Shown: positions 13,023 through 39,702 of the stretch, one piece after another
Numbering within the stretch: the stretch's first letter is position 1
How the letters are laid out: each line of letters starts with the position of its first letter
From: Flavobacteriales bacterium
Lineage (GTDB): Bacteria > Bacteroidota > Bacteroidia > Flavobacteriales_D > Crocinitomicaceae
Length of the DNA: 64,000 bases
Reading direction: 5' to 3'
NCBI GenBank assembly: GCA_009885545.1
Contig: VFKM01000012.1
Location: 23,667 to 87,666 of the forward strand
Notes under the pieces: model-generated
What the model was told of the DNA's origin: nothing
Seen by the model: only the letters and a program-made list of their open reading frames with translations
The model's database searches: none
Position numbers and translations under genes: made by a program

Positions 13023-13328
13023 ATGTACATGAAAAATTGCATTATAATTGGAGAGCTTTATTGGTTAAAAAATAGAAAATGTTTGTTCCAACAAGGTTCA
13101 GGTAAAGCAACTGAATTTGAATTGAGTGATAAATGCAATGCAATTAAGCTTGATTGGGTAATACCTCTTTTTATTAAATCATTTTATAAAATAGACGTTG
13201 AGAAAACAACTATTTTATGCAAATATGGAATATATGATATATTTTATCAAAATAATCAAATAAAATATTTGTTTTATGACAATATTCAATACCAGAAAAA
13301 AATTAATGAAAATAAACAAATTACATAA
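13023..13328 (+). CDS. GxLY-family small protein
   Basis: Motifs IGELYWL ... DWVIPL ... LCKYGIYDI. Confidence 0.65.
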   Translation: MYMKNCIIIGELYWLKNRKCLFQQGSGKATEFELSDKCNAIKLDWVIPLFIKSFYKIDVEKTTILCKYGIYDIFYQNNQIKYLFYDNIQYQKKINENKQIT

Positions 13329-13374
13329 GCAGATATGTCTGAATCAGTAGTATTTTGTTATGTAATCCAAAAAC

Positions 13375-13662
13375 ATGAAACATAAAAATATACCCAAAAT
13401 CGGTGAGTTATACTGGCTGCGCCTTACTGTGCTTACCTATCCCCTAAACACTATTCAGAGTACAGGAAAAGAATTGATGGGAAAACGGGATGAAGAATCA
13501 GATTGGATTATTCCTGTTATTGTTATGGAAAGAAATGCTTTTTGTAGTTGGAAAATGACTGTTTTATGCAGGCATGGACTTGTTGATATTTATCCAAACT
13601 CATCCGAAATTGAAACATTAACTTATCCATTATATGATTTGATAAATTTGAATGAAACATAG
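13375..13662 (+). CDS. GxLY-family small protein
   Basis: Motifs IGELYWL ... DWIIPV ... LCRHGLVDI. Confidence 0.65.
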   Translation: MKHKNIPKIGELYWLRLTVLTYPLNTIQSTGKELMGKRDEESDWIIPVIVMERNAFCSWKMTVLCRHGLVDIYPNSSEIETLTYPLYDLINLNET

Positions 13663-13722
13663 ATATTATTGACGTGAAACAACGATATTTGAATCAAACC
13701 AACGCCCCTCCCACCTACGATC

Positions 13723-13965
13723 ATGGCAAAAAATGATAATAAACAATTTCATGTCGGTGATTTAATCACTTATGAAGGAGCAATGTCAGAACCATTATGG
13801 GATTCTTTAGAGGAATTTTCATTTGGCAATGAAATCAAAAAAAATGATTGGCTTCTAGTATTAGAAATTTTAAATGATAAAATAGATTATACTTGGTTTA
13901 AAACACTAACAAAACATGGAGTAGGTTATATAGACTCTTATCTTGAATATGAATTTGTTTCCTAG
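13723..13965 (+). CDS. GxLY-family small protein
   Basis: Motifs VGDLITY ... DWLLVLE ... LTKHGVGYI ... EFVS stop. Confidence 0.65.
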   Translation: MAKNDNKQFHVGDLITYEGAMSEPLWDSLEEFSFGNEIKKNDWLLVLEILNDKIDYTWFKTLTKHGVGYIDSYLEYEFVS

Positions 13966-13969
13966 AAGG

Positions 13970-14200
13970 TCAACTTATTCTTTCAAGACCATAGAAACCT
14001 AACCCAGTACTTTCATAATAATCAATAGTTACAATAATATTTGCACCAGTTACAAACATTGTTAATGTGCCATATTCGTTAGGTTTAGCAAGTTTATTAG
14101 CAACCATTATTAATAATGAACCTTTTTTAACAATAAAGCCAAAATAAAGATCTATTATAGTACAATAAAGGCCGCCAGGAGATTCTAATTTAATTAACAT
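13970..14200 (-). CDS. GxLY-family-like small protein
   Basis: Motifs PGGLYCT ... ERIS stop. A weaker match to the family. Confidence 0.5.
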   Translation of the reverse strand: MLIKLESPGGLYCTIIDLYFGFIVKKGSLLIMVANKLAKPNEYGTLTMFVTGANIIVTIDYYESTGLGFYGLERIS

Positions 14201-14204
14201 ATTT

Positions 14205-14549
14205 TTATTTATTCACTAACTGAAATAATTCATTAAATCTAAATCCTTGTATCTTAAGATGATTCTGACCCATCGACCAAGCATACCAAAATGTAGTTCC
14301 ATTTGTAATGTCCCACACTCTGTAACAATATGCCGTGATCTCTCCACTGCTGTCTGGAAAAATAACAATATCTTTATCTAATAAGATATATGAATTTCCT
14401 ATAATAGTTTCGCAATATTTAAATTTACTAGCCCAGTTTCTCATGATAGACATTGAGGTTCTGCATGCTTGATTCTTATCATTATGGATGTTCAAAAATA
14501 CACGTATTTTACATTCATAGAGAGAGCCAATGGTCGGTTGGGGTTCCAT
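14205..14549 (-). CDS. GxLY-family protein (114 aa)
   Basis: Motifs IGSLYEC ... DKDIVIF. Confidence 0.6.
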   Translation of the reverse strand: MEPQPTIGSLYECKIRVFLNIHNDKNQACRTSMSIMRNWASKFKYCETIIGNSYILLDKDIVIFPDSSGEITAYCYRVWDITNGTTFWYAWSMGQNHLKIQGFRFNELFQLVNK

Positions 14550-14550
14550 T

Positions 14551-14715: not shown

Positions 14716-14734
14716 GTTTGTTTATCCTTGAATC

Positions 14735-14762
14735 ATCTTACTGGTTTCAGAGAGAATATCAA
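14735..14762 (-). promoter_or_regulatory. sigma70-like promoter, leadered
   Basis: -35 TTGATA 14757-14762, N16, -10 TAAGAT 14735-14740. Confidence 0.6.
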
Positions 14763-14771
14763 CCAAATTAG

Positions 14772-15668: not shown

Positions 15669-15709
15669 AACAAATTTGCTAACACTTGAAGTTGGTTGGG
15701 ATAATTCTT

Positions 15710-15946: not shown

Positions 15947-15952
15947 AATTGT

Positions 15953-15981
15953 ATTATATAATCAACGCATTATTATATCAA
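15953..15981 (-). promoter_or_regulatory. sigma70-like promoter, leaderless configuration
   Basis: -35 TTGATA 15976-15981, N17, -10 TATAAT 15953-15958, N6, ATG 15944-15946. Confidence 0.7.
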
Positions 15982-16236
15982 TTATAATTCTTCTGATTTA
16001 AACAATATAATATAATCGTTATTACTGTGCTTGATCCAATTATGAAGAATCCCATGTTTAGAATACCATAAGTTTTGGACACTATTATAAATATAATTTG
16101 GATGTTTATTAACTCCAAGATAGATCAACCAATCTGTTGAACTAATAGGAAACCAAGATTCTTGCAAATAAAAACTCGGCATCCAAATTGGTTGGGTCGG
16201 TCTGTAAAGTTCATATCTCAGAAATTTTGTTTTCAT
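15982..16236 (-). CDS. GxLY-family small protein
   Basis: Motifs YELYRPT ... DWLIYLG ... YSKHGILHN. Confidence 0.6.
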   Translation of the reverse strand: MKTKFLRYELYRPTQPIWMPSFYLQESWFPISSTDWLIYLGVNKHPNYIYNSVQNLWYSKHGILHNWIKHSNNDYIILFKSEEL

Positions 16237-17603: not shown

Positions 17604-19691
17604 TCATGGATTCTTTTTTGATTTCTCAAATGTTGTATCAATTAGATTAATATAATCAAAAAGGTCTTCATCAATGATCTCGCAATCTCTATTTCTACAA
17701 TAATAATAATCCTGAGCATTTTCTTTGTTTGCAAAATATTTTAACAAAGGATAATGATTTCTTAAAACCTTAACCATAATTTTCAATTCTTTAAGAAAAG
17801 AAGAATGTGGTGTGTTTCTCTCTACAAATACTTGATAAACAAGCAAACTTTTTCTCTTTGTAATAAATTTTACAGCTTCTTCCAGATAACTTATCATTGG
17901 AGAGTTTTTATATTTTAACAAATTAGTTTTAGCAATCATTTTTATTTCTTCATCATCAAATAAAGTTTGATGATGAGCCGCTGTAGAACAAGCAAAAAGA
18001 ACTTCGCCAGGATCAATTTGACTTGTTTTCAGATCATTATCTAAATAATCATCAAATGATTGAATTTCTTCGACTGCATCCTCTAATTTGTCTTTTGGAA
18101 CATTATCGCAAAATCCATAAATACTATAATCTCCCATTTTACAATCCGAATATTTTGACAAACCATTAATATCAATCTCTATTCCTTTGTGCAAAGGAAT
18201 ATATGTTTGTGCTGATGAATATTGTTGATTAGATTTCTTTAAATGAATCCAGACTTTCTTTTTTGTATCCTCTTCAAACTTATCAAAAGATGTCCTCTGA
18301 AATCCTGTTGTGCCCTTACCGAGAACAAAAAACGTAAGTCTGCCAAGAGAAGCTTTTTTAGATTTTGGCTTATAATAATCTTCTGATTGTACTAATTCAA
18401 GAAGGTCTAATCGTTTATCTGTAATTTCTTTTAAATCAGAAAATTTCATTAAAATAACACAAGTCTTGCTAGGAAACTTTTCTAGCAACTTTATTGCAAA
18501 ATTTTGCGCTCTTGCATCAAAAGGAAGCATCTGTTGCATAACACAATAAATTGATTCTTTATTGATTGGTAAAGTGTGACTTGAATAGTGTTTTTGTTTT
18601 TTTACAAGATTACATCCAATAACTCGATCATATCTTACAATTTCTCCATGAGTTAGAGTCGTAGCTGCACCAAATAATTTTATTCCTTTCCACATGCAAT
18701 TATCAAAACGATCAAAGATTTTTGATAATTCATCAAATTGACAATTGGCTTCAATAAAAGTGGAAGCTCCTGAAATAGACTCTTCAACTTTTTTATCGAT
18801 TTCTTTTTCTAGAACCTGTAGTTTTTTAGTAATAGCAAATTTGTTTTTATCATCAATTTCTACTTGCTCCCTATTGGCCGAAACAGAAATTTCTCCTGTT
18901 TTAAACTTAAGATACAAAGAAACCCCGTAATTAAATCTAATTGGGACGCAAGAAAAATCAAATGTATATTCGATTCCATCAACAATCAAAAATAGTTCTC
19001 TGTTTCCATAATGATTTGATCCTTTGTTAATATACCAATCAGTTCCAGATAAAACAGTAACATTATTTTCAAAGACAACACCTCCACCTTTGATAACAGG
19101 TTTAACGTCCCACCATTTAGTAATGTGGTGAATTTCTTTGATAAATTCTGAAAAATCATTACTTCTGATTGGAATAACGATCTCTGTTCCAGTTTTAGCA
19201 ATTGTTGATTCTTCTGATAAAAGAACTAATTTACCACAGCGAGATTCATCAATAATTGCATTATAGGAACGATGAATACCATCAATGAATGTATTGATAA
19301 TAAAGGAATCAGAGTAACCAAAACTACTCTTTGCGCCAATTCCATATGTCCCAACCTGAACATCACTATTTCTTTTAGTTGAATTTCCATATTTGATGAA
19401 AATTTCTTTTATTCTTGTTGGACTGATTCCTGGCCCAAAATCTCTAATACGGAGATTCGGATCTAAAAATGTTGGAATTGTAATTTCAATTGGGACATCA
19501 TCTTTCCCAATTTCTCTGTGAGCATCTCTTGCATTACAGGAATATTCCCTCACAATTGCTCTTTTGATATTTGAATAGATTTTGTTCCTGAGAAGACTCA
19601 AAATGAATCCGACATTTCCAATTCCGAAAGAATCCTCATCAAGAACACCGGAGGATTCGATTTCGGGTGATTCAATATTCAGTTTTGCCAT
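17604..19691 (-). CDS. rIIA: rIIA-like GHKL ATPase
   Basis: 695 aa with N-box CNARDAH, G1 RDFGPGIS and G2 GTYGIGAKS. Sits directly upstream of rIIB, as in T4. Confidence 0.8.
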   Translation of the reverse strand: MAKLNIESPEIESSGVLDEDSFGIGNVGFILSLLRNKIYSNIKRAIVREYSCNARDAHREIGKDDVPIEITIPTFLDPNLRIRDFGPGISPTRIKEIFIKYGNSTKRNSDVQVGTYGIGAKSSFGYSDSFIINTFIDGIHRSYNAIIDESRCGKLVLLSEESTIAKTGTEIVIPIRSNDFSEFIKEIHHITKWWDVKPVIKGGGVVFENNVTVLSGTDWYINKGSNHYGNRELFLIVDGIEYTFDFSCVPIRFNYGVSLYLKFKTGEISVSANREQVEIDDKNKFAITKKLQVLEKEIDKKVEESISGASTFIEANCQFDELSKIFDRFDNCMWKGIKLFGAATTLTHGEIVRYDRVIGCNLVKKQKHYSSHTLPINKESIYCVMQQMLPFDARAQNFAIKLLEKFPSKTCVILMKFSDLKEITDKRLDLLELVQSEDYYKPKSKKASLGRLTFFVLGKGTTGFQRTSFDKFEEDTKKKVWIHLKKSNQQYSSAQTYIPLHKGIEIDINGLSKYSDCKMGDYSIYGFCDNVPKDKLEDAVEEIQSFDDYLDNDLKTSQIDPGEVLFACSTAAHHQTLFDDEEIKMIAKTNLLKYKNSPMISYLEEAVKFITKRKSLLVYQVFVERNTPHSSFLKELKIMVKVLRNHYPLLKYFANKENAQDYYYCRNRDCEIIDEDLFDYINLIDTTFEKSKKNP

Positions 19692-19806: not shown

Positions 19807-20061
19807 TCAGCTTATCAGTTGGAACCATTTAGGATCCTTAAAACATCTATAGAAATGACTTTCCAAAAGAAAAACACAACCTTGTTTGCTAAAAAAACTT
19901 AAGTTGCCATTTTTAGTAATTCCTAAAAATATATAAAGTTCACCTTTTTCTCCCTCAACAGAATAAGGTGGTGATCCAAGTTCATAGCTTGGTGCATCAT
20001 TTGACCTAAAACTAAGACGTTCTTTTAACTTATAAAGATTTCCAATATTAGAGTAAATCAT
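19807..20061 (-). CDS. GxLY-family small protein
   Basis: Motifs IGNLYKL ... LYIFLGI ... QLIS stop. Confidence 0.65.
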   Translation of the reverse strand: MIYSNIGNLYKLKERLSFRSNDAPSYELGSPPYSVEGEKGELYIFLGITKNGNLSFFSKQGCVFLLESHFYRCFKDPKWFQLIS

Positions 20062-20064
20062 TTA

Positions 20065-20295
20065 TTATATCTTTTTAAATAAAAAAGCATTCTTACTAAT
20101 GCCAATAGTAGGAAGAATATATGTTCCTCCCTTGAAAAGTATAGTGATATCATTATCTATTCTTGTATCAATTATCAAAACAATATCATTTGGTATTATT
20201 TTTTTTAATCGAAAAGACTTAAAATAAAGAGCCGGATAATATGAAAAAAGATCATCTCCGATAAACTGATAAAGTTCTCCAGTTTCAAGTAACAT
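20065..20295 (-). CDS. GxLY-family small protein
   Basis: Motifs TGELYQF ... NDIVLIID ... ILFKGGTY. Confidence 0.65.
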   Translation of the reverse strand: MLLETGELYQFIGDDLFSYYPALYFKSFRLKKIIPNDIVLIIDTRIDNDITILFKGGTYILPTIGISKNAFLFKKI

Positions 20296-20557: not shown

Positions 20558-20931
20558 TTAGATTCTCCATGCTGGCTTCTTGCAATCAAATACATTCCAA
20601 TGAATTCTTTTAACCTATCTCCATCAAGATACCTATGTGCCCAAACAAGAGGATCTTTATTTCCTTTTTCATTATTGCATTTCCAACATAAAACCATATA
20701 GTTTTCTCTAATATTTTTTCCTCCTTGTGCCCTCGGGATGATATGATCAATAGTCAAATAGTTTCTTGTATTTGGGAATCCATTTCTTCTGCAAACAAGA
20801 AGTTTACCATCCTCTCCCATGTATTTGATTTTACCAGAAACAGGACAAAGAACTGATGCTCCACACCTGAAGCAAGAATGGTTAAAGTGTTTAAGAACTT
20901 TTTGTCCCTCGCCATGAGAAAGATAACCCAT
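20554..20931 (-). CDS. HNH homing endonuclease
   Basis: Core DHIIPRAQGGKN...N...LCWKCNNEKG, with an N-terminal CxxC...C. Confidence 0.85.
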   Translation of the reverse strand: MGYLSHGEGQKVLKHFNHSCFRCGASVLCPVSGKIKYMGEDGKLLVCRRNGFPNTRNYLTIDHIIPRAQGGKNIRENYMVLCWKCNNEKGNKDPLVWAHRYLDGDRLKEFIGMYLIARSQHGESK

Positions 20932-20937
20932 AAAAGG

Positions 20938-20965
20938 ATCATAGCAGAACCAGTTAGAATATCAA
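20938..20965 (-). promoter_or_regulatory. sigma70-like promoter, leaderless configuration
   Basis: -35 TTGATA 20960-20965, N16, -10 TATGAT 20938-20943, N6, ATG 20929-20931. Confidence 0.6.
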
Positions 20966-20970
20966 CTGAA

Positions 20971-21258
20971 CTATGTTATTAATTTTGACAGACTTGGGAG
21001 GATATGTCTATTGGTTATTGACGCTGACATTAATCCATACTTTGTATAAAAAATATATGGTTCATAACAGAACGTATCCGAAATTTCAGCAATCCCAAGA
21101 TAAATTAACCATTCCTTTTGATGAAATCTTTGATAGCCATCAAAATTAGTTCCTATATTGCAACTCAACCAAAAATAGTTTTTATCAGGATCTTCTGCGG
21201 CTCCATCTTGATCTACAATATACATTTTTCCTATTATTAATTCTTCTCTTGTTATCAT
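20971..21258 (-). CDS. GxLY-family small protein
   Basis: Motifs IGKMYIV ... EWLIYLG ... YTKYGLM. Start trimmed to the ATGA overlap with the upstream stop. Confidence 0.6.
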   Translation of the reverse strand: MITREELIIGKMYIVDQDGAAEDPDKNYFWLSCNIGTNFDGYQRFHQKEWLIYLGIAEISDTFCYEPYIFYTKYGLMSASITNRHILPSLSKLIT

Positions 21259-21818: not shown

Positions 21819-22184
21819 TTAGACATCTACAGATGTTGTTAGAAGTGTCCAACGGTATGGAAGCTTTTGGCTTTCTTCTTTTTTATAAAAGATCTTTTGG
21901 ATTTTGTTGGCTGCATTTTCAAGAGATGACGCCCTAACAGTATAATCTGTTTTAGATACTGCCCTAACCTTTACTTCATAAGTAAATGGTCCCTCTTTTG
22001 GCTCCAGTTTATTTAAATAAAGAAAAGTCCATCGAACAAGTTTGCTTGTATTTCCATAAACTGGTTTAATTGTAAAGCCGAGCATAAGTTCCTCGGCTTT
22101 TGATCTTGCATCTGATTCAGATTCAGCAAATGCAATTCTCAGATTGACTGTTTCGACCTCAAGAACTTTAGAAATATAATTCAT
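21819..22184 (-). CDS. hypothetical protein (121 aa)
   Basis: ORF track. ATG lies 6 nt after the -10. Confidence 0.65.
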   Translation of the reverse strand: MNYISKVLEVETVNLRIAFAESESDARSKAEELMLGFTIKPVYGNTSKLVRWTFLYLNKLEPKEGPFTYEVKVRAVSKTDYTVRASSLENAANKIQKIFYKKEESQKLPYRWTLLTTSVDV

Positions 22185-22190
22185 AGAACA

Positions 22191-22218
22191 ATCATAACAG
22201 AAACAAGAAGAATATCAA
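22191..22218 (-). promoter_or_regulatory. sigma70-like promoter, leaderless configuration
   Basis: -35 TTGATA 22213-22218, N16, -10 TATGAT 22191-22196, N6, ATG 22182-22184. Confidence 0.6.
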
Positions 22219-22219
22219 C

Positions 22220-23651: not shown

Positions 23652-23921
23652 TCAACTAATAAAATCAATATAAGAAAATAAATTTTCTATAAAAGCTATA
23701 TGATAAGAAACAATTTTATCTTTTAGCATAAAAAGTTCTCTATTATCCTTTGAAGTACCAATATATAATATGAAATCTGTGGGCAATATTACAGCATCAT
23801 GATAATGACTTTTACCATTGGTACTCTCAGATAACATCCAAAATTTACCAGGGACTCCATATGGACTTTGTTTCATATCTGACTTATACAAAGAACCAAT
23901 TTCCAAAAATTTAACACTCAT
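23652..23921 (-). CDS. GxLY-family small protein
   Basis: Motifs IGSLYKS ... DFILYIGT ... DFIS stop. Start sits at the ATGA overlap. Confidence 0.6.
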   Translation of the reverse strand: MSVKFLEIGSLYKSDMKQSPYGVPGKFWMLSESTNGKSHYHDAVILPTDFILYIGTSKDNRELFMLKDKIVSYHIAFIENLFSYIDFIS

Positions 23922-24388
23922 GAAACAAGTTCCAGGCAACTTAAGAAAGAATTGCTAGGATGATCAAATACAATTTCCCCTTTAAAAATGTAGGTGGCTG
24001 TTTGGTTATAACCATCATAAGAACAGCAAATGAATATATCCCCTATTTCCATAAATCTGTCCCAGATAACAGCTTCATTGGCAGCCAGAGACAGACCCAC
24101 AGATGAGACTGCATAAGATTTAACCCGCCCTGAGTTTTTGTAATCTGTTATTCTATATAAATTACCTGGAATTAATTCTTTCATGATATTTTTTCCTGTT
24201 GCATTTCCTGGAAGAAGATGGAATATTCTACTTTTTCTGAAATTAAAGCATACAAGGCATCTTAATCTTCTATTAAAACCAGAATATTTTGAATCTATGG
24301 TTTCATATCCAAGAACGATGTGCCATTTCCCATTCCATTGAGCTAAATCTCCAATGTTAAAATCTGTTAGTTCAAATGGCTTTATCAT
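23918..24388 (-). CDS. tandem two-domain GxLY-family protein (156 aa)
   Basis: Contains both IGDLAQW and PGNLYRI, then YIFKGEIVF, with an ELVS stop. Confidence 0.6.
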   Translation of the reverse strand: MIKPFELTDFNIGDLAQWNGKWHIVLGYETIDSKYSGFNRRLRCLVCFNFRKSRIFHLLPGNATGKNIMKELIPGNLYRITDYKNSGRVKSYAVSSVGLSLAANEAVIWDRFMEIGDIFICCSYDGYNQTATYIFKGEIVFDHPSNSFLSCLELVS

Positions 24389-25354: not shown

Positions 25355-25621
25355 TTAATAACTTCTTTCAATTATTGGGTTCTCAAATGATTCTAAAAAA
25401 TCATATGATTGATAAACTATACCAAACCTACTAAGAAAATAACAACATTCCAACGGAAAATCATCTGGAATTCTTGATTCAATATAAATCAACCAATCAT
25501 TTTCTAATAAACGGCATCCATTTTCATTGCCAATAATTGAAAAATTAGCAATTGATTTAATTCTAAAATTAGAAAAATTTTTCCCGACAAAATAAAGATT
25601 TCCTTGTTTTAATTTAATCAT
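25355..25621 (-). CDS. GxLY-family small protein
   Basis: Motifs QGNLYFV ... DWLIYIES ... LSRFGIVYQ. Confidence 0.65.
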   Translation of the reverse strand: MIKLKQGNLYFVGKNFSNFRIKSIANFSIIGNENGCRLLENDWLIYIESRIPDDFPLECCYFLSRFGIVYQSYDFLESFENPIIERSY

Positions 25622-25622: not shown

Positions 25623-25850
25623 TTAGCTTATTTTCACAAGCCAGTGTTGGAATATTCCAGTTGTAATTTTTTGAGAACCGCAAAACCATAACTTATATCT
25701 AATATCTGGTGGACTAAATGGGAAAACAGGAAAAACAACCTTTTCTATAATAATTCCTAATTCATTATAATAATGGTTATCTTTATTTTCACTTATACAT
25801 CTTACAAGATCACCAAGTTTAAAAAGACAATTAGATTCATATAAACTCAT
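25623..25850 (-). CDS. GxLY-family-like small protein
   Basis: Motifs LGDLVRC ... VKIS stop. Confidence 0.55.
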   Translation of the reverse strand: MSLYESNCLFKLGDLVRCISENKDNHYYNELGIIIEKVVFPVFPFSPPDIRYKLWFCGSQKITTGIFQHWLVKIS

Positions 25851-25856: not shown

Positions 25857-26842
25857 CTATGATTTCTTAAGATACCATGCCCTTGCTCTCTCAGCCAAAA
25901 CCTTAGCTATAGGTTTCCATTCAAAACCAGAAACCTTAAGTTCCTCTTTGCTTTCTTTTTCAATATCCTTTGAAATCCATCCAAGAAACAATCCAATGTT
26001 CTTCTTTTCAAATTCTAAAGAACCATTGTTGACTGACACTGCACCCTGATTCATTCTTCCTTCAGTTAAAAACAAATCAACAAATTCATTAATTGAATTA
26101 ACAGTTTCAGAATCTACTTGAACTGGAACCTTTGTTTTGACAACTTGATGTTTTTCTCCTTTTGCCTTAAATGCTAAATCAGAAAAACATTTCCTTCCTT
26201 GATGTAGTTTTGAAACCGGGTAAAAAACTAATCCTTCCCCTACACCTTCAATGCCAAATGTTTCTTTTATCCAAGGATCACAAGCTTCAACTTCTAATAC
26301 TTTTTCATTTAATTTAGAAGCAACCCTTTCAAGTTCCTCTGCTGATTTAGACCAATCAATTTCAATTTCGAGATTTTGATGCCATGGAAGAACATACGTC
26401 TTTTGAATCCCCTTAACAACTTTATTAAGGACCACAGGATCCACAGTTAAATAATTTGAATCACTAAGAGGACTTGTTGCAAATACAAAAATGATTTTTG
26501 TGGTACTAAACAAGCTGCGGCCCCACTATTGATTCCTTTTCCAATCCACTCTCCATAAACAAGAATGATTCCATGATCTCTTGATAGTGATTTCCACTGA
26601 ACAGACGTTTCTTCAACCCATTTCGCAAATCCAGCATTATCATGCCCAGCCAAAAGATTTTTTGTGCGACTTTGTGCAACTAATGTTCCATCAGCATGAC
26701 ATTGAATACCCGAATTTGTACCATGTAGTTTTAGTTTTGCTTTATATGTAACTTTGTTGGAGCCATTTAACAATTCAGGATATCTGGCAACTGTTTTTCT
26801 TACATTATAAAATGATTCAATCGATGGCCATGGAATAAACAT
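25857..26842 (-). pseudogene. rnlB: Rnl2-type RNA ligase split by a frameshift near 26500-26515
   Basis: - N-terminal ORF 26447..26842 has motif I KLHGTN (T4 Rnl2 KIHGTN) and GEWIGKGI (T4 GEFAGPGI).
- The continuation KIIFVFA... and the C-terminal domain lie in the -1 frame, in ORF 25857..26513. Confidence 0.7.
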
Positions 26843-27308: not shown

Positions 27309-27557
27309 TTATTCCTCGACTGGTAAAAACAATTCTTGCACCTGCATGTCATTGAGCTCTGTAAGTTTGCATACAATAATTCCTTTAAAAAAAAATTTAT
27401 AAATTGACATAATCGCAGGAGTAGACAACTCTTCTTTTCCTAGGAAAATCAAATAATCATTGGATCTTATATAAATAACATTTGCAAAAAAATTATTAAA
27501 AGGATAATAAGGATCACAAGAATTTGGCAGTTGTTTAACTAAATCTCCAGGTTTCAT
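27309..27557 (-). CDS. GxLY-family small protein
   Basis: Motifs KPGDLVK ... NDYLIFLG ... FFFKGIIV. Confidence 0.65.
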   Translation of the reverse strand: MKPGDLVKQLPNSCDPYYPFNNFFANVIYIRSNDYLIFLGKEELSTPAIMSIYKFFFKGIIVCKLTELNDMQVQELFLPVEE

Positions 27558-28402: not shown

Positions 28403-28825
28403 TCATACCTTCCTTTGGTATCGTGTAAAGCAATGTTGATATGGCTCAGATACGAATACTCTTTCCCATGCTGTTTCATCATATGAAGAATAGATTCCAA
28501 TAAGAGAAACATAAAGATTGTATGGCGTAAAAAGAATTGTTGTTCTTGCCTCTCGACCATCACCATCATTGGTTTCTTCTGGGATTTGTACTAATCCACG
28601 AAGGATTTCATCTTCGGATAAAACATATCTCCAGATAGATTGATATTTTTGAGCGTATAATTTCTGCTTGTTATATCCATCTCTAGTAATAGATTTAGCG
28701 GTTTGTCTATTTATAAAGACTCCAGGTTCAAAAATTCCCTGAAAATATCCGTCTTGACGAAACCAAACATACCTTTTTTGGTCAACTTGTTTTAAGATTT
28801 CTTCTTTTGTTGCAAGCGTTTGCAT
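28403..28825 (-). CDS. GDGN/YVSLxGxYSS-family protein (paralog 1 of 4)
   Basis: Motifs NDGDGRE ... YNLYVSLIGIYSSYDETAWERVFVSEPY. Confidence 0.65.
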   Translation of the reverse strand: MQTLATKEEILKQVDQKRYVWFRQDGYFQGIFEPGVFINRQTAKSITRDGYNKQKLYAQKYQSIWRYVLSEDEILRGLVQIPEETNDGDGREARTTILFTPYNLYVSLIGIYSSYDETAWERVFVSEPYQHCFTRYQRKV

Positions 28826-28829: not shown

Positions 28830-29135
28830 TTATTTCTGTATCGGACTATATCTTGTTTCATAATAGGTGAAAGGTTCAGAAACAAATATATCAGTCCATT
28901 CTGGTGGGCCGTAACTAGAAAACCATCCTGTTAAACTAACATATAATTCATATTCTGAAAAGAATAAAGTTCGATACATTTCATTTCCGTCCCCCATATT
29001 TCTTTCCTCAACAACAGAATATGACCCTATATTGAGAGTGCAATCATCTATATTAAAATCAAACCAGTTATAGTCTTTGTTTTTAATATGTTCTAAAATA
29101 GATTCTTTTGTTGGAGCAAGTGTTATTGTAGACAT
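28830..29135 (-). CDS. GDGN/YVSLxGxYSS-family protein (paralog 2 of 4)
   Basis: Motifs ERNMGDGNE ... YELYVSLTGWFSSYGPPEW. Start trimmed to ATG 29133-29135. Confidence 0.65.
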   Translation of the reverse strand: MSTITLAPTKESILEHIKNKDYNWFDFNIDDCTLNIGSYSVVEERNMGDGNEMYRTLFFSEYELYVSLTGWFSSYGPPEWTDIFVSEPFTYYETRYSPIQK

Positions 29136-29136
29136 C

Positions 29137-29478
29137 TTAAATTTCTTCATACCTTGTTTCAGTATACTGGTACGGTTTTGAAAGGAAAATAGAAGTCCAT
29201 TCATAACCATTATAAGATGAATAATAACCAGTCATGGAAATATAAAGATCATAATCTTTGAAGTAAAAAGTCTTAAAGGCATCATTGCCATCTCCAAAAT
29301 TCCTATCCTCAACAACCTTTATGTTTTTTAAGGCAGAAGCAAATATAACCCAATTTTCTTCATCATTATCAGATGGCTCACCAGAAAGCCAATCATATTC
29401 ATCTTCATAATTTCTAAGCATCATCTTTCCAAGTCTAACTGTTTCAATCAATTCTTCTTTTGTTGGCATCCTTAACAT
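29137..29478 (-). CDS. GDGN/YVSLxGxYSS-family protein (paralog 3 of 4)
   Basis: Motifs EDRNFGDGND ... YDLYISMTGYYSSYNGYEW. Confidence 0.65.
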   Translation of the reverse strand: MLRMPTKEELIETVRLGKMMLRNYEDEYDWLSGEPSDNDEENWVIFASALKNIKVVEDRNFGDGNDAFKTFYFKDYDLYISMTGYYSSYNGYEWTSIFLSKPYQYTETRYEEI

Positions 29479-30223: not shown

Positions 30224-30422
30224 AATACAACTCAAACACATGATTCGATTGTTGAAGAAACGGAATTATTTTTACCCTTCCTTTATGGAGGAAGGAATAA
30301 TAGTACAGCTCATCTACTGTTCTAAAATCTATTAAAATGCATAATTCATCTTTTGGAATTATGCTTTTAAGGTCTCTTTCATGTAATTCAAATTTTGCTC
30401 TATACATTTCACCTATAATCAT
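30216..30422 (-). CDS. GxLY-family small protein
   Basis: Motifs IGEMYRA ... ELCILIDF ... FLHKGRVKI. Confidence 0.65.
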   Translation of the reverse strand: MIIGEMYRAKFELHERDLKSIIPKDELCILIDFRTVDELYYYSFLHKGRVKIIPFLQQSNHVFELYYD

Positions 30423-30841
30423 GATACTGCTTTAAATCTTGTTTCCTGATATACATAAGGAGTTGAAATAAATACTTCAACCCAATAGGGATCATTCCAA
30501 GAAGAATAAGTCCCAATAAGAGAAACATAAAGATTATATTGTTCAAAATGAAGAGTGAAAAAACATTCATTCCCATCTCCTTCATTACGATCTTCTATAG
30601 TTTTGACACTATCAAAAAGGATATCATCTGGAGATGGAACAAGTTCAAATTTATTTTCCTCTTTATACTCTAAATTTAGAGCAATGAGATCGTCATAAGT
30701 ATCCGCTACTTGACCTGTTTCTTGATTTTTATATGGACCACCTTCATGAACTCCAGTAATATACAGTTTCTCACTAAACCAAGCATGATGTTTTTCTTTT
30801 ACTTTTTCAAGAATTTCTTTTTTTGAAGCTAGAACTAGCAT
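30419..30841 (-). CDS. GDGN/YVSLxGxYSS-family protein (paralog 4 of 4)
   Basis: Motifs EDRNEGDGNE ... YNLYVSLIGTYSSWNDPYW. Start trimmed to ATG 30839-30841, which has an AAAGGAAAA SD. Confidence 0.65.
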   Translation of the reverse strand: MLVLASKKEILEKVKEKHHAWFSEKLYITGVHEGGPYKNQETGQVADTYDDLIALNLEYKEENKFELVPSPDDILFDSVKTIEDRNEGDGNECFFTLHFEQYNLYVSLIGTYSSWNDPYWVEVFISTPYVYQETRFKAVS

Positions 30842-30863
30842 ATTTTTTCCTTTTGTATCGAAC

Positions 30864-30892
30864 ATGGTAGTAAAAACATAACAAATCTTCAA
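30864..30892 (-). promoter_or_regulatory. variant promoter, leadered
   Basis: -35 TTGAAG 30887-30892, N17, -10 TACCAT 30864-30869, then a 22-nt leader. Confidence 0.45.
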
Positions 30893-31939: not shown

Positions 31940-31968
31940 ACAATATCAGATTCTTGTATGAATATCAA
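31940..31968 (-). promoter_or_regulatory. sigma70-like promoter, leadered
   Basis: -35 TTGATA 31963-31968, N17, -10 TATTGT 31940-31945. Confidence 0.6.
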
Positions 31969-31974
31969 CAGAAT

Positions 31975-32844: not shown

Positions 32845-33153
32845 CTATGATAATTTTATAAAAGATGTTAAGAAGTCCCAATTTTCTATACGCAATTCAC
32901 AAGTTCTTCCTTCATATAAGACAGAAACAATATAATCAAGATCTTTTGTTCTTGTAATCGAGAGTATTAGAATTGTTTTTCCAGGTTTTACTTCTCTGTT
33001 ATCCCATACAAACATTCGTTCTTGTTTATAAAACCTTATAGACCTTCTTACAAGACAAAGATCACCGGGTTTAACTTTAATGTAAAAAATCTCAACAATA
33101 TTAAAAAAACCAATAATTGCTTTATCTAAAAAAGAATCTAAGAGAAGCCACAT
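32845..33153 (-). CDS. GxLY-family small protein
   Basis: Motifs KPGDLCL ... TILILSI ... VLYEGRTCEL ... IKLS stop. Confidence 0.6.
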   Translation of the reverse strand: MWLLLDSFLDKAIIGFFNIVEIFYIKVKPGDLCLVRRSIRFYKQERMFVWDNREVKPGKTILILSITRTKDLDYIVSVLYEGRTCELRIENWDFLTSFIKLS

Positions 33154-35259: not shown

Positions 35260-35720
35260 ATTTTTGAATAATCCCTTGCTCGTGAATGGGTTACAATATC
35301 TTCCAAGCATTTTGCACGGAAGAAGGACATATTCCTTATATCTGGATTCTCTAAGATAATCAACTGAATTGATTCCCTCATTGCCTGCTCTAATTTTAAA
35401 CTAAATACATAAAGATCATTGCAGGTATGATTGTGGGGAGTTATATTATAACGATTTTTAAGATATGATAAATCAAGTTTAAATTCTTCTTGACATTTAA
35501 TAAAATACGGGACTTTATTCATTGAAACAATTTTTGAAATATTCCTTTGATAATTTGCCAAGAAAACATTTAATATTCTAAAGAACAGAGTGCGACTATT
35601 TTTTCTCTTCCAATCTTCGGTTGATTTAAAAGGATAAAATTGTTTGGGGCGTTCTTTAGGAGAGTACACGATATGAATATCCAGCTTTTTTAATATTATC
35701 TGATAAAAACCTGCCAGCAC
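35256..35720 (-). CDS. hypothetical protein (start uncertain)
   Basis: ORF track. The first ATG is at 35522, and the upstream part may use a GTG start. Confidence 0.45.
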   Translation of the reverse strand: MLAGFYQIILKKLDIHIVYSPKERPKQFYPFKSTEDWKRKNSRTLFFRILNVFLANYQRNISKIVSMNKVPYFIKCQEEFKLDLSYLKNRYNITPHNHTCNDLYVFSLKLEQAMRESIQLIILENPDIRNMSFFRAKCLEDIVTHSRARDYSKI

Positions 35721-35916
35721 TGGTAGCAGAGATCAATTCTGTAACAACCTCCTCTGGAATTGCTTTGTATTCATATTTTAATTGAGGATTCCTAAATTCC
35801 ACAATTAAATTTTGGGTAACCTTATTGTAAGCAATTTTTCTAATCGAAGTAGAATTTGGAAATTCATGATCAAAGACTGTAGTGCCACCAAGAAACATTT
35901 CATCTGAATTTGTCAT
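35656..35916 (-). CDS. KTSC-domain protein (86 aa)
   Basis: Pattern IRKIAYNK..QNLIVEFRN...YEYKAIPEE....SAGRF....IKKAGYSY. Start set at ATG 35914-35916, 5 nt after the -10. Confidence 0.65.
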   Translation of the reverse strand: MTNSDEMFLGGTTVFDHEFPNSTSIRKIAYNKVTQNLIVEFRNPQLKYEYKAIPEEVVTELISATSAGRFLSDNIKKAGYSYRVLS

Positions 35917-35921
35917 ACCTA

Positions 35922-35950
35922 ATTTTATCATAAAATCCACCAAAAGTAAA
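35922..35950 (-). promoter_or_regulatory. degenerate promoter, leaderless configuration
   Basis: AATCAG-TTTACT 35945-35950, N17, -10 TAAAAT 35922-35927, N5, ATG. Confidence 0.45.
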
Positions 35951-36001
35951 CTGATTTTGCAAGTCTTTGATTTCACATAAGAATCATTTAACAAATATTA
36001 T

Positions 36002-36454: not shown

Positions 36455-36715
36455 ATGAAAATAATAATTGACAAAATAACATTAAATAAAATCTTAGATC
36501 ATTATAGAAATAAGGCAATGGAGAAGTTCCCAGATAGAATTTTTACTCATGCTGCACAGTTTGAAATAAACACTTTTATAAAACAATATCAAGAACATAT
36601 CATCAAAAGAGAAACTCATCCTGGTTGGTCTCTTCCGATTAGGTTGATATTTGATCCAAGAGGTTGTAATATGGATGTGGAATTAGATCCGCAAGCCGAT
36701 GTTGAAATATTCTAA
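36455..36715 (+). CDS. hypothetical protein (86 aa)
   Basis: ORF track. Confidence 0.6.
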   Translation: MKIIIDKITLNKILDHYRNKAMEKFPDRIFTHAAQFEINTFIKQYQEHIIKRETHPGWSLPIRLIFDPRGCNMDVELDPQADVEIF

Positions 36716-37001
36716 TAAAAAAATTTTAAAGATAAAACGGAATGCCAACTCAGGTGACTTGTTTGCAGTACCTTGCAATTATTCAATATTTTTTTATAGA
36801 ATCGATGGAACATTTGTTCATATAGAAAAAACTGATCCAATATTTTTGTTGTTGCAGTATAATCATTTTACATGGAATCCGCATCAAAGATGTCATGTTG
36901 CTGAAGTCTCTGTTTTATATAATGGCATAGTAGGTAATATTACTGTTTTTGATAGGGATATTAAAAGAATATGGAAAAAAAAATCAAACCTGGCGACTTA
37001 G
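36699..37001 (+). CDS. GxLY-family small protein
   Basis: Motifs SGDLFAV ... DPIFLLLQ ... VLYNGIVGNI. Confidence 0.6.
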   Translation: MLKYSNKKILKIKRNANSGDLFAVPCNYSIFFYRIDGTFVHIEKTDPIFLLLQYNHFTWNPHQRCHVAEVSVLYNGIVGNITVFDRDIKRIWKKKSNLAT

Positions 37002-37177
37002 TAAAAGCCAAAACTAATCATTTATCTTATGTAAGAAAGAATGATATTTTTGTAGTTTTAAGCTCTGTAAAAACTGATTCAAATACAACATATGAAATTC
37101 TTTTTTCCGGTAAAATTTTAAAATTTTGGATTAATAATTTTTTTAAAGAAAAAGAACTATTTGAAGTTATCAGTTGA
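36971..37177 (+). CDS. GxLY-family small protein
   Basis: Motifs KPGDLVK ... NDIFVVLS ... ILFSGKILKF ... EVIS stop. Confidence 0.65.
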   Translation: MEKKIKPGDLVKAKTNHLSYVRKNDIFVVLSSVKTDSNTTYEILFSGKILKFWINNFFKEKELFEVIS

Positions 37178-37202
37178 AAATCCAAGATACACACACTAGG
37201 AT
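37174..37202 (+). promoter_or_regulatory. sigma70-like promoter, leaderless configuration (Rnl1)
   Basis: ATCAG-TTGAAA 37174-37179, N17, -10 TAGGAT 37197-37202, N6, ATG 37209. Confidence 0.65.
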
Positions 37203-37208
37203 GTCACC

Positions 37209-38402
37209 ATGTTACTAGTTCAAGAATATCTAAGGGACCATTCTCTCGAAGAGCTTGTTACAGATCATGGAGTGGAAGCTCGTGTATTTGGGCATAAAGC
37301 TTCATTCAATTATAACCAAATAGAGGCAAAAGATAATGATCCTATTGTTTGTGAATGTAGAGGTTTAATTTTATCTAAAGCTGATGGAACTGTGTTTTCG
37401 TCAGGAACTACTGTTGGGGATACGAAAGTATTGGCACAGCCATTTTTTAGATTTTTTAATTTCGGACAAGGAGCCGCTGCTCCTGTTGATTTTGATGATA
37501 AAAAACTTAAAATTTATGATAAGAAAGATGGAAGTCTTATCATTGTTTATTTTGATGAATTATCTGGAGACTATCCAGAAGCTTGCATTGCAACCAGATC
37601 AGTCTCAGAAGCTGATCTTCCAATGTCGGATGGAAGAACCTTCGCAGAGTTAGTAAAATCAACTATTTTGAAACAAACTGGGAAATACTGGGAAGAATTC
37701 TCAAATCTTTTAAGAAATCGTTGCTCATGGGGAGCAACAACTTGGTGTTTTGAATTATGCACTCCATATAATTCAGTGGTCGTTCAACACAATGAATCCA
37801 AAATGTTTTTGTTATACGCAATGAGCCAAGTGTTGCTTTCCGAATATCCAAAAGAAACATTGGATTCTATTGCGCTAACTTTAGGAGTGCAAACTGCTCC
37901 TTTATTGCATGAAGGTCCACTAACAATTGAAACTTGTATGGCAATTGTGAATTCAAGATCAGGAAAGGATTTTGAGGGTGTAGTAGCATGTGATTCTAAA
38001 TTCAGAAGAATCAAAATTAAGAATGCAGAATATCTTGCTCTTCACAAAATTACATCTTCACTTGTAACTTCTTGTAGAAGCATGGCAACTTTAATTCTAA
38101 ACGGATCAGAGGATGATATTCTCCCACTTCTTGCAAAGGAATTACAAAAAGATGTTTTAGATATGAAAGAACAAATTGTAACAACTTGTAAAGAGCATGA
38201 GTATTTTTTCCACAAAACATTTATACCAAATATAACAAGAAAAGATTTTGCAATTGCTTGTCAGCAAAACAAAGAGATGTCTATGGGATATATGATGGAC
38301 TGTTACACAAAAGGATATAAAAGTTTTATTGATTGGATGAGGAGCAAGAAAACTCTAGAAGGAGAATATCCAAAAGGATTATTAGATTATTGGTGTAAAT
38401 AA
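37209..38402 (+). CDS. rnlA: Rnl1-type RNA ligase (T4 gp63-like)
   Basis: 397 aa with motif I KKDGSL (T4 Rnl1 KEDGSL) and an upstream FFRFFNFGQ. Size is similar to T4 Rnl1. Confidence 0.75.
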   Translation: MLLVQEYLRDHSLEELVTDHGVEARVFGHKASFNYNQIEAKDNDPIVCECRGLILSKADGTVFSSGTTVGDTKVLAQPFFRFFNFGQGAAAPVDFDDKKLKIYDKKDGSLIIVYFDELSGDYPEACIATRSVSEADLPMSDGRTFAELVKSTILKQTGKYWEEFSNLLRNRCSWGATTWCFELCTPYNSVVVQHNESKMFLLYAMSQVLLSEYPKETLDSIALTLGVQTAPLLHEGPLTIETCMAIVNSRSGKDFEGVVACDSKFRRIKIKNAEYLALHKITSSLVTSCRSMATLILNGSEDDILPLLAKELQKDVLDMKEQIVTTCKEHEYFFHKTFIPNITRKDFAIACQQNKEMSMGYMMDCYTKGYKSFIDWMRSKKTLEGEYPKGLLDYWCK

Positions 38403-38422
38403 TTCAAACCGCATGGTTTGAA
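38403..38422 (+). terminator. hairpin immediately after the Rnl1 stop
   Basis: TTCAAACC-gcat-GGTTTGAA followed by an A/T-rich stretch. Confidence 0.45.
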
Positions 38423-38435
38423 TATAGTTAAATTA

Positions 38436-38783
38436 ATGGAGCCAACAATCAGGGAACTTTATCGTTACAGATTAGCTGATCCTGATTATGGTATATGGGC
38501 TTCTCCTACAAAAGAAAAATGTATTTGGTCACTATTATGTACTTGTAGAGCATGGACACAAATAGAATTTCCAAAATCAGTATATCCACGACCTAATGAT
38601 ATCTTTCTTATATTAGATTCTGAAGTTGTTTCAAACACCGATCCAGATACTATTTTTATAAGCTGTTACAATTTAATGGAATGTCGAACCAGCAATATAT
38701 TTTGGATTGGGTATGCTAATATAATTTCAAAACAAACTTTACAAACTTCTTTTTTTGACATATTTGAAAAGGTCGAACTATGA
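38436..38783 (+). CDS. GxLY-family small protein
   Basis: Motifs IRELYRY ... NDIFLILDS. Start moved to the ATG because the track's TTG lies inside the hairpin. Confidence 0.55.
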   Translation: MEPTIRELYRYRLADPDYGIWASPTKEKCIWSLLCTCRAWTQIEFPKSVYPRPNDIFLILDSEVVSNTDPDTIFISCYNLMECRTSNIFWIGYANIISKQTLQTSFFDIFEKVEL

Positions 38784-38923
38784 TTAAAATACTGTTTAAT
38801 AAAATTAAAAAATATCAAATTTCATTGGATAAAGAAGTTTATAGGTTAAGATATGTTTTCAACAATTCTAAAACTATAAAAATTTATAGAGAATTCATTA
38901 AGAGCATTATTCCAACTCAATGA
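38780..38923 (+). CDS. hypothetical protein (47 aa)
   Basis: Below the track cutoff. ATGA overlap with the upstream stop. Confidence 0.3.
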   Translation: MIKILFNKIKKYQISLDKEVYRLRYVFNNSKTIKIYREFIKSIIPTQ

Positions 38924-38988
38924 TAAAGAATACCTTTTGATGGTTTTGAGCGATTCTAGAGTCTTCTAGGCAGGTTGTAGTGCGCTTA

Positions 38989-39702
38989 TTATTTTGGAAG
39001 TTTACTGATTACGAATAATTTGTTTGGGAAAAATTTCTGAACAGATGAATCATCACATCTTAACACTTTAAAAACTTTTGAAGACCAGGATCCGGTTTTA
39101 TAGAAACTTGGTTTGTTTGGTGTATTCACAGCAATAACGAGATGAGCTTTTGTTTTTGTTACAATAAGATCTCCAATTTCAATTGATTCAAACAAGATTA
39201 GATGTTTAAGTGGAAGTAGATGTTGACGACAATAAAACCATATATGATTTTTACTATTTTCCCATAAATCTATTAAGTCAATCGAACCATCTTTTGAAAT
39301 TTTAAAACCTTTGTAAATTTTTACAGCAGCAGAAACAATATATAATTCATTTTGTTGATTATTACGAGAAGCCAGAGCTTCAAATTTTTCTTTAGAATCA
39401 ATATAAAAATATTGATTCTTTAATAAAACCATAAAACCAACAATTTGCGTAACATATGATTCTTTGTATGAAGAATCATTTAATAAATCTCCAAAAGATA
39501 AATCTTCAAATATTTTTTCTAAAGGTTTATCGAAAGTTTCTACGACTTGTTCTGCTTGAAATATTGAACGATATTTGAATGTATAATGAACATTTTGCCA
39601 CCATGTTTCTATATCTGTTGGCGAATCAATCTGAAATACAAATGTATGAGTGAGTACTCTTGGTCTAACAAGAGATCCAATATGTTGGACTCCTAGCTTC
39701 AT
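38989..39702 (-). CDS. hypothetical protein (237 aa) with a C-terminal GxLY-like domain
   Basis: ORF track. The C-terminal part carries IEIGDLIVT ... VISKLPK. Confidence 0.65.
   Translation of the reverse strand: MKLGVQHIGSLVRPRVLTHTFVFQIDSPTDIETWWQNVHYTFKYRSIFQAEQVVETFDKPLEKIFEDLSFGDLLNDSSYKESYVTQIVGFMVLLKNQYFYIDSKEKFEALASRNNQQNELYIVSAAVKIYKGFKISKDGSIDLIDLWENSKNHIWFYCRQHLLPLKHLILFESIEIGDLIVTKTKAHLVIAVNTPNKPSFYKTGSWSSKVFKVLRCDDSSVQKFFPNKLFVISKLPK

Follow-up and report, generated by a model that had tools for sequence, protein, structure and literature searches.

The 64,000-nucleotide (nt) stretch analyzed here, referred to as the window (positions 23,667 to 87,666, forward strand, of contig VFKM01000012.1 in assembly GCA_009885545.1, deposited as a Flavobacteriales bacterium), comes from a large phage with only a distant relation to T4. 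We found that it encodes a family of at least 27 single-domain proteins of 66-121 amino acids (aa), along with a 156-aa protein that contains one family domain. It is nearly certain that the 27 open reading frames (ORFs) form a genuine paralogous family, and structure predictions make it nearly certain as well that the family folds as an SH3-like small beta-barrel of five strands. We propose, with a probability of roughly 0.45 for the combined statement, that the proteins are early-expressed SH3-like binding modules that constitute a birth-and-death family serving host takeover or counter-defence. From promoter context and from the architecture of the proteins we infer the early timing and the role as a repertoire of binders. 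Coordinates are collected in Table 1, and members are named by their first coordinate.

A paralogous family of small proteins

We compared all 307 ORFs of at least 45 aa in the window, each accompanied by three composition-preserving shuffles that served as decoys. Since pairwise comparison with phmmer joined only small groups (20065/20300/21255/21528 and, separately, 13023/13375), we used profile iteration. A profile built from the first of these groups, subfamily A, expanded to 8 members at E<1e-3, and a profile built from the tandem array at 56609-57695 expanded to 7, with 36971 common to both sets; merging the two seed sets gave 15 members at the same threshold. With inclusion relaxed to E<0.01, the search converged after four rounds on 27 ORFs without admitting a decoy in any round, and the weakest member scored 29.5 bits compared to 10 bits for the best decoy. 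Given that members score well against their own profile, we also performed leave-one-out searches, in which 24 of the 27 ranked first among approximately 1,200 non-member sequences and 21 reached E<0.01. The weakest members by this measure were 36699, 25623, 32845 and 21255, and two of them, 21255 and 25623, are independently linked to subfamily A. A six-frame scan with stops masked recovered the same 27 and no further copies.

The original prediction had claimed one family of at least 30 paralogs with at least 27 ORFs between 13023 and 39702. Profile clustering of the window ORFs bears out the single family, while the supported count is lower in that interval: 22 ORFs there and 5 in the array. 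The motifs it had quoted are all present, namely IGELYWL (13023 and 13375), IGELYQF (20300), CGNLYRF (21528), KPGDLVK (27309 and 36971) and VGDLYQY (57020). Overall, 25 of 27 members have the N-terminal G-x-L-Y type motif, as do 12 of 280 other ORFs, a test that is partly circular, and 13 of 27 members end in [hydrophobic]-x-x-[IVLM]-[ST], compared to 5 of 280 other ORFs (p=5e-12). As predicted, the copies lie on both strands, interleaved with three RNA ligase genes and an HNH endonuclease gene, and they occupy a large share of the coding capacity (6,117 of the 26,680 bases of 13023-39702, or 22.9%). Their predicted divergence at the nucleotide level also holds, with no DNA-level repeats between copies except for a 32-nt match that spans the start codons of 19807 and 25355; the median pairwise protein identity between copies is 17%.

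We considered whether AT-rich codon usage could have produced a superficial resemblance among small ORFs with a high content of K, N, I, F and Y. The mostly insignificant pairwise similarity and the self-matches returned by database-scale searches would be expected under such an artefact, but shuffled sequences never entered the profile (best decoy approximately 10 bits, members at least 29 bits), other AT-rich phage loci, one of them at 28.8% GC, contained no matches, the end motifs are highly enriched in members, and two independent structure predictions agree. The decoys, the leave-one-out tests and the negative-control loci lead us to reject this explanation, which we regard as scarcely credible.

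Several further candidates could bring the total to 30-34 copies. The original prediction placed a tandem array at 56393-57695, in which the five copies at 56609-57695 are supported and a possible sixth, at 56393, is not, as its profile hidden Markov model (HMM) scores are not significant. The frame of 56393-56602 reads MKLYNCLSQIEVGSL, an in-frame TGA and QFEPDGHDLVLKGDCLLVIEV, and later CKFVS, so that the C-terminal motif of the family is present. TGA is a genuine stop elsewhere in this genome, for example at the conserved end of 20300, and we therefore reject recoding of the TGA at 56555-56557. Since TGA is a normal stop here, the simplest reading of 56393-56602 is that it is probably a pseudogene of the family. 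Two domains had been claimed in 23918..24388; the C-terminal half belongs to the family (44.6 bits), while the N-terminal half does not align credibly (hhalign probability 2.7%). The domains claimed in 38989..39702 and 7696..8136 were not linked to the family by profiles and show little beyond a G-D-L motif. ORF 38989-39702 had no significant HMM match, and its segment 38989-39195 is possibly an SH3-like domain and is listed as a candidate.

Predicted fold and database comparison

We predicted two structures with AlphaFold2 (AF2). The first, of 36971-37177, was built from a shallow alignment of 28 sequences and reached a predicted local distance difference test score (pLDDT) of 93.9 and a predicted template modelling score of 0.78. 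Its DSSP assignment (E10-13, E26-34, E38-45, E48-55, H60-63, E64-66) gives the order beta1, long loop, beta2, beta3, beta4, short helix, beta5. The second, of 13723-13965, was built from an independent alignment of only 11 members of the 'DWLIYLG ... K-H-G' type, none of which is in the strict A/D subfamilies. It has a pLDDT of 76 and the same five-strand order (E14-17, E43-51, E57-63, E66-71, E76-78), with low confidence solely in the long first loop.

Foldseek comparison of the first model with the PDB returned Spt5/NusG KOW domains, NdhS, the SH3-like domain of KIN17, the MRG chromo barrel, the 53BP1 Tudor domain and PsaE, and comparison of the second returned HspQ, the SH3 domains of Src, Fyn and Nck, Tudor domains and eS4. 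Foldseek probabilities were 0.9-1.0 and template modelling (TM) scores 0.4-0.68, and the best E-values were only 0.05 and 0.12, which is usual for domains so small. These matches point to a fold class rather than to a specific family. Among the predicted viral structures of BFVD, dozens of small uncharacterized phage proteins matched with TM scores of up to 0.74. The earlier guess of an all-beta barrel of the SH3, KOW or Tudor type is thus supported by one topology in two models and by Foldseek matches to KOW, Tudor, chromo and SH3 domains.

Sequence profiles did not assign the family to a named one, as had also been anticipated: nothing significant was found in Pfam-A, PHROGs, NCBIfam or PDB sequence profiles. 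Searches of Pfam-A at E<=0.1 with 28 sequences gave no match to the KOW profile, and among the SH3, Tudor and chromo profiles the only match was SH3_CYT4 (E=0.087 over 12 residues of one member). In PHROGs v4, 36971 matches most of the profile of phrog_25928, for which no function is given, at E=0.007, and 27309 matches it at E=0.19; the remaining members had no consistent match. NCBIfam gave nothing below E=0.037 and no match common to several members, and a sequence-profile search of the PDB gave 0 matches at E<=10.

SH3/Tudor-like folds form the largest structural clusters specific to bacterial viruses, comprising approximately 1.3% of the proteins in bacterial-virus clusters of the Viral AlphaFold Database (PMC12487901). 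The family resembles the small SH3/Tudor-like phage proteins catalogued there in fold class, in length (60-100 aa) and in having no assigned function (PMC12487901). It differs from them in that a single genome contains one family at 27 or more copies, and in having its own motifs (GxLY, DWLIYLG, FxKG and a terminal FxxIS-COOH) together with a long variable segment at the RT loop. No sequence-level link to catalogued families was found in PHROGs, Pfam or NCBIfam.

Conserved strands and a variable loop

We mapped the family alignment onto the AF2 model. Conserved features are Gly-x-Leu-Tyr/Val entering strand 1, Asn/Asp followed by the hydrophobic strand 2, an aromatic-x-hydrophobic-Leu/Phe-x-Lys-Gly hairpin formed by strands 3 and 4, and a C-terminal Phe-x-x-Ile/Val-Ser that forms strand 5 and the end of the protein. 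Since the conserved positions follow an alternating hydrophobic pattern, they look like scaffold residues. Strand segments have a near-constant median length of 8-9 residues across the alignment. The segment between beta1 and beta2 ranges from 6 to 44 residues (median 24), is almost unconserved and, in the models, is at the position of the RT loop of classical SH3 domains. In classical SH3 domains the RT loop forms much of the ligand-binding surface. Isoelectric points (pI) range from 4.4 to 9.7 and net charges from -8 to +8, with 10 basic and 10 acidic members, which argues against one shared nucleic-acid ligand. No catalytic motif was seen in family members, and a hydrophobic N-terminal extension is present only in 32845.

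A conserved scaffold, a variable loop at the binding face, a wide range of charge and the lack of a catalytic motif fit soluble binders of multiple targets better than nucleic-acid binders with one ligand. The family could instead consist of KOW-like or Sm-like proteins that bind nucleic acid and act on RNA or on the transcription or translation machinery, possibly together with the RNA-repair enzymes of the phage (three RNA ligases and Thg1). The top fold matches in the PDB are indeed KOW domains of NusG/Spt5 and ribosomal proteins, the genes lie among RNA ligase genes with a Thg1 homologue elsewhere in the window, and T4 MotB, which has a predicted KOW-like domain, binds DNA (PMC7827196). 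Set against this, neither KOW nor any other Pfam profile matched even at E<=0.1, save the 12-residue SH3_CYT4 fragment, ten members are acidic, with pI <6 and net charges as low as -8, and the family has no common basic surface motif. Furthermore, relatives in the rIIA clade have RNA ligases beside rIIA and lack the family, so there is no obligate linkage between the two. We therefore consider nucleic-acid binding an unlikely function for the family as a whole, if one that deserves to be taken seriously.

Comparison with the two best-studied fold relatives gives likenesses and differences. Like the KOW domains of NusG/Spt5 and ribosomal proteins (PF00467), which supply the best PDB matches (4zn1 and 1m1g, TM score approximately 0.55), the family has a 'G-D-x-V' type start of strand 1. 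Unlike KOW, which has a short Gly-rich turn between beta1 and beta2, it has a long and variable loop there, and its proteins are free-standing instead of belonging to a NusG-like protein, with the KOW profile matched by none of the 28 sequences. Like the SH3 domains of Src, Fyn and Nck, it has a barrel of five strands in which an RT loop follows strand 1, and its Leu-Tyr at the end of strand 1 is reminiscent of the SH3 ALYDY motif. These SH3 domains are the leading class of PDB matches for the second model, but the matches are weak (E>=0.1, TM score 0.37-0.57). Unlike in eukaryote-type SH3 domains, we found no sign of proline-peptide binding in the family, and the only SH3 Pfam match was the fragment at E=0.087.

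Promoters and operon context

In the main interval, the 22 copies have transcription direction and operons in common with rIIA, RNA ligase genes and the HNH gene, and several intergenic gaps contain sigma-70-type promoters with TG-extended -10 elements. The motif GTTGATATTCN occurs at 15 sites compared to 3 expected, usually in intergenic sequence and 16 nt upstream of a TG-extended -10 box. Its sites include 20917-20966, 22170-22219, 14753-14763 and 31959-31969, plus 11 more, and the first two share a 50-nt repeat. Judged from their sequence and placement, the GTTGATATTCN sites probably represent a class of early promoters, and they are reminiscent of the promoter-stem-loop (PeSL) cassettes by which shuffling occurs in T4-like phages (PMC4122927). 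Location in a variable region, operons shared with rIIA, RNA ligases and HNH, and sigma-70-type promoters together make early expression probable. The genes would lie in a variable, non-structural region downstream of sigma-70-type extended -10 promoters, and the family would probably be transcribed early by the host RNA polymerase.

This promoter context resembles early host-polymerase transcription of the variable regions of T4-type phages, which contain 55.2 and MotB (PMC4396842, PMC7827196, PMC4122927). The T4 ORFan 55.2, an early protein of the non-essential region, inhibits topoisomerase I (PMC4396842). MotB, an early gene in a variable non-essential region, has a predicted N-terminal KOW-like domain and acts on host nucleoid proteins and DNA (PMC7827196). 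Like MotB, the family may represent a small-barrel module in a T4-type phage; this is an analogy only, drawn with early expression of the family taken as probable.

We also weighed whether the proteins might serve in the virion as accessory or decoration proteins, or in its assembly. Phage structural proteins do include SH3-like barrels, and the array (56393-57695) is within 1.1 kb of the portal gene (51936-55292). However, 22 of the 27 copies lie in the rIIA/RNA ligase region, away from recognizable structural genes, and no structural PHROG family was matched. Late-promoter-like TATAAATA motifs occur only 3 times per strand of the window, and those of the minus strand (20501, 28715 and 56717) all lie inside ORFs and not in intergenic gaps; we reject regulation by late promoters. 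A structural role is accordingly very improbable.

In most genes between 13000 and 58000, the 15 nt upstream of the start codon are A/T-rich and a Shine-Dalgarno sequence is not recognizable by eye. Such a pattern may point to a host that makes little use of Shine-Dalgarno sequences. The lack of Shine-Dalgarno would suggest a Bacteroidota host, which is no more than a possibility, given that clear promoters of the -35/-10 type are present.

Distribution and evolutionary history

An exhaustive search of 1.84 billion representative proteins with an 8-sequence profile recovered the window's own proteins and one outside protein of 78 aa, P0009 (E=2.7e-4). With the 8- and 28-sequence profiles, word-indexed searching of 5.8 billion proteins gave self-matches only, and tblastn of member 20065 against INPHARED phages gave no match. 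P0009 is encoded on an 88-kb metagenomic phage contig (L002) that also has denV, dCMP deaminase and GIY-YIG genes. We found that 10 ORFs in the first 10.5 kb of a 20-kb locus of this contig join the family, with zero decoys, so that the copy count of at least 10 refers to that 20-kb locus. The locus otherwise has almost nothing in common with the window. The best matches of its copies are spread among the window subfamilies rather than among each other, which suggests that the diversification is old or that the genes move between phages.

The nearest relatives of rIIA have 37-43% identity, and several are on contigs of 300-470 kb. Four rIIA neighbourhoods of these relatives (approximately 78 kb) contained one weak family match, at 20677-21015 (+) of locus L006 (E=0.002), with the motifs KPGEIYKH and NDEFMVLQIF and an FERII-COOH end. 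A Flavobacterium phage, of which 50 kb was examined, had zero family matches. 

The most similar pairs are adjacent genes (13023/13375 and 20065/20300), and five copies lie head to tail. These arrangements, together with the probable pseudogene, give a pattern that, from sequence comparison, we read as birth and death by tandem duplication followed by deep divergence.

The copies could also be largely functionless, as runaway tandem duplicates in a recombination-prone region that are tolerated because the capsid has spare capacity. Tandem arrays, one copy that is possibly interrupted by a stop, extreme divergence and the near absence of the family from the nearest rIIA relatives are consistent with this, and the conserved promoter repeat could drive recombination in a manner analogous to the PeSL cassettes of T4-like phages (PMC4122927). 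Nevertheless, all 27 ORFs are intact in a genome of 30% GC, where random ORFs of 70-120 codons are rare, and positions that probably determine the fold have been kept at 17% median identity, giving a model with a pLDDT of 94. Subfamilies are also common to a second, unrelated phage contig, which suggests long retention under purifying selection. We find it improbable that most of the copies are inert.

Genomic setting

The window genes belong to an NCBI contig of 157,908 bp in the protein collection. rIIA lies at 17604-19691 (-), with 24-34% identity to known rIIA genes by tblastn, and a rIIB-like gene adjoins it. The window encodes three RNA ligases, one HNH endonuclease and two GIY-YIG endonucleases. 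A T4-type portal gene (Portal_T4, PF07230) lies at 51936-55292 (-); an intein (Intein_splicing, aa 262-674) interrupts it and accounts for the length of its product, 1,118 aa, and tblastn matches to other portals cover only approximately 41-44% of the query, broken into two or three segments. Other genes include a Thg1-like tRNA-His guanylyltransferase at 6015-6830 (-), an ADP-ribosylglycohydrolase at 43597-44511 (-), a 357-aa protein with sigma-70 region 2 at 40367-41440 (-), and tRNA genes at 2958-3030 and 5573-5643 (-) for tRNA-Ile(TAT) and tRNA-Arg(TCT). Together with the three RNA ligases these form a notable set of RNA/tRNA repair genes. GC content is 38-43% over the first 12 kb and approximately 30% from 14 kb onward, and the SH3-like family is restricted to the low-GC part. 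Megablast of 20 kb of the window found no nucleotide-level relative in INPHARED, and no close relatives of the rIIA or Rnl1 loci were found in viral, metagenome or genome collections.

One RNA ligase gene is apparently split into overlapping ORFs at 25857-26513 and 26447-26842 (-), of which the upstream one carries the N-terminal portion of PF09414; a frameshift, a pseudogene or a programmed shift could explain this arrangement. The GIY-YIG homing endonucleases are paralogs, at 58923-59933 (-) and 62615-63463 (+), with a related gene in locus L002.

The window also contains other sets of paralogs. A second, unrelated family comprises four proteins of 113-157 aa at 28403-28825, 28830-29210, 29137-29478 and 30419-30892 (all -), with the motifs EDRN-x-GDGNE and Y-x-LYVSL-x-G-x-YSSY and pairwise E<1e-5. 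DNA-level repeats between its copies are still visible, and 28403 has no Pfam match. A small trio of 76-88 aa is at 7108-7374, 9692-9937 and 9930-10160 (-), and a pair, one of which is a KTSC-domain protein, is at 11178-11411 and 35656-35994 (-).

Table 1. Family members with statistical support, the GTTGATATTCN-class promoter, and candidate copies that fall short of support (LOO, leave-one-out; coordinates are those of the window).
Feature	Coordinates	Strand	Evidence or context
Member, 101 aa, recent duplicate of 13375	13023..13328	+	Pairwise phmmer E<1e-5 with 13375; LOO E=7e-7, rank 1
Member, 95 aa	13375..13662	+	LOO E=9e-4, rank 1
Member, 80 aa, first sequence of second structure model	13723..13965	+	LOO E=2.5e-6; AF2 pLDDT 76
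Member, 84 aa, DWLIYLG type	15982..16236	-	LOO E=8e-4, rank 1
Member, 84 aa, directly upstream of rIIA, same transcription direction	19807..20061	-	LOO E=6e-5
Member, 76 aa, tandem duplicate of 20300	20065..20295	-	Pairwise E<1e-5 with 20300; LOO E=4.5e-11
Member, 85 aa	20300..20557	-	LOO E=5e-8; best window match of outside relative P0009
Member, approximately 95 aa from ATG, ORF reaches 21273	20971..21258	-	LOO E=5e-5
Member, 79 aa	21255..21494	-	phmmer cluster E<1e-3 with 21528/20300/20065; LOO E=0.05, rank 1
Member, 96 aa	21528..21818	-	LOO E=8e-9
Member, approximately 89 aa from ATG, ORF reaches 23939	23652..23921	-	Joins array subfamily E<1e-3; LOO E=1e-4
156-aa protein, family domain is C-terminal half, aa 68-156 (23918-24187)	23918..24388	-	44.6 bits; LOO E=1.5e-6
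Member, 88 aa, DWLIYI type	25355..25621	-	LOO E=1.6e-4
Member, 75 aa, weakly supported	25623..25850	-	Joined subfamily A E<1e-3; LOO against whole family E=0.56
Member, 82 aa from ATG as called in NCBI (P0004)	27309..27557	-	LOO E=1.5e-6
Member, 77 aa	27829..28062	-	LOO E=2e-3, rank 1
Member, 68 aa	30216..30422	-	LOO E=1.7e-4
Member, 101 aa	30918..31223	-	LOO E=3e-10
Member, 102 aa, hydrophobic N-terminal extension, weakly supported	32845..33153	-	E<0.01 in round 1; LOO E=0.06, rank 2
Member, 100 aa, weakest of 27	36699..37001	+	E<0.01 in round 2; LOO E=0.67
Minimal member, 68 aa, modelled first	36971..37177	+	LOO E=1.5e-7; AF2 pLDDT 93.9
Member, 121-aa ORF, probable ATG 38436, longest beta1-beta2 loop (44 residues)	38418..38783	+	E<1e-3; LOO E=3e-3
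Array copy 5, probable ATG 56812	56609..56830	-	Array subfamily E<1e-3; LOO E=8e-3
Array copy 4, 66 aa	56814..57014	-	LOO E=9e-4
Array copy 3, 72 aa	57020..57238	-	LOO E=4e-9
Array copy 2, 80 aa	57235..57477	-	Array subfamily E<1e-3; LOO E=0.03, rank 1
Array copy 1, 70 aa	57483..57695	-	LOO E=4.5e-3
Sigma-70-like promoter, TTGATA, 16 nt, TG-extended TATGAT; GTTGATATTCN class	20938..20966	-	Precedes HNH gene, then 20300, 20065, 19807
Possible sixth array copy, in-frame TGA 56555-56557 at conserved Tyr of G-x-L-Y	56393..56602	-	HMM scores not significant
Candidate divergent member, 76 aa	13970..14200	-	GGLY N-terminal and LERIS C-terminal motifs; HMM E=2.6; hhalign probability 0.6%
Candidate, 114 aa, best-scoring non-member	14205..14549	-	HMM E=0.05; hhalign 19.5 compared to shuffle maximum 14.4, only 14 columns aligned
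Candidate, C-terminal 68 aa of 237-aa ORF 38989-39702	38989..39195	-	hhalign 17.3 compared to shuffle maximum 11.4, 40 columns, probability 8%
Candidate, N-terminal half of 23918 protein	24188-24388	-	GDL motif only; hhalign probability 2.7%
Candidate	7696-8136		Little beyond G-D-L motif matched; no statistical support
Candidate	27669		Family motifs present; no statistical support

Discussion

We propose that each paralog would be a small soluble binding module whose own loop holds a different macromolecule of the host or of host defence. Together, the paralogs would form a diversified repertoire for host takeover or counter-defence that is maintained by gene birth and death. Several points weigh against this proposal. 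The Foldseek matches are not significant by E-value, and the best model comes from a shallow alignment of 28 sequences. The timing rests on matches to consensus promoters that are only approximately 2 standard deviations above the shuffled expectation across 20 kb, and the phage has its own sigma-like protein (40367-41440), so that its promoter logic could differ. Lastly, relaxed constraint, and not diversified binding, may account for the variability of the loop.

Paralogs tend to be few in the compact genomes of phages, and 27 or more diverged copies of one small domain are therefore unusual. To our knowledge, such large gene families have rarely been reported in phages, and our literature search for comparable phage families found nothing specific. 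Among viruses of eukaryotes, the MGF360/505 families of African swine fever virus and the ankyrin families of poxviruses consist of diverged paralogs of a small binding domain that lie in variable regions, expand in tandem and are thought to act in host range and immune evasion. The family described here is like these multigene families in having many paralogs, tandem clustering and a variable region, all three of which we found. It is unlike them in fold and in virus realm, and the function proposed for it here draws on analogy. A more speculative and rather doubtful extension is that the family is a phage counterpart of such multigene families, an 'accordion' of SH3-like binders with a hypervariable RT loop in which each copy would be directed against a different defence or takeover target, and in which the repertoire would expand, diverge and decay with host defences.

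It was already known that phages encode many small SH3-like proteins, and the fold itself was known too. What is new is a family that is absent from curated libraries, of which one phage has at least 27 diverged copies and another at least 10, together with its architecture of a scaffold plus a variable loop. A genome with an amplified barrel family provides a natural panel, with a constant scaffold and variable loops, in which to ask what such barrels bind. If the copies are inert duplicates, the locus would still be a record of how genes arise and are lost in variable regions of T4-type phages. If they are target-specific binders, they would represent a protein-level repertoire strategy for host takeover or counter-defence, as well as a compact natural scaffold for binder engineering.

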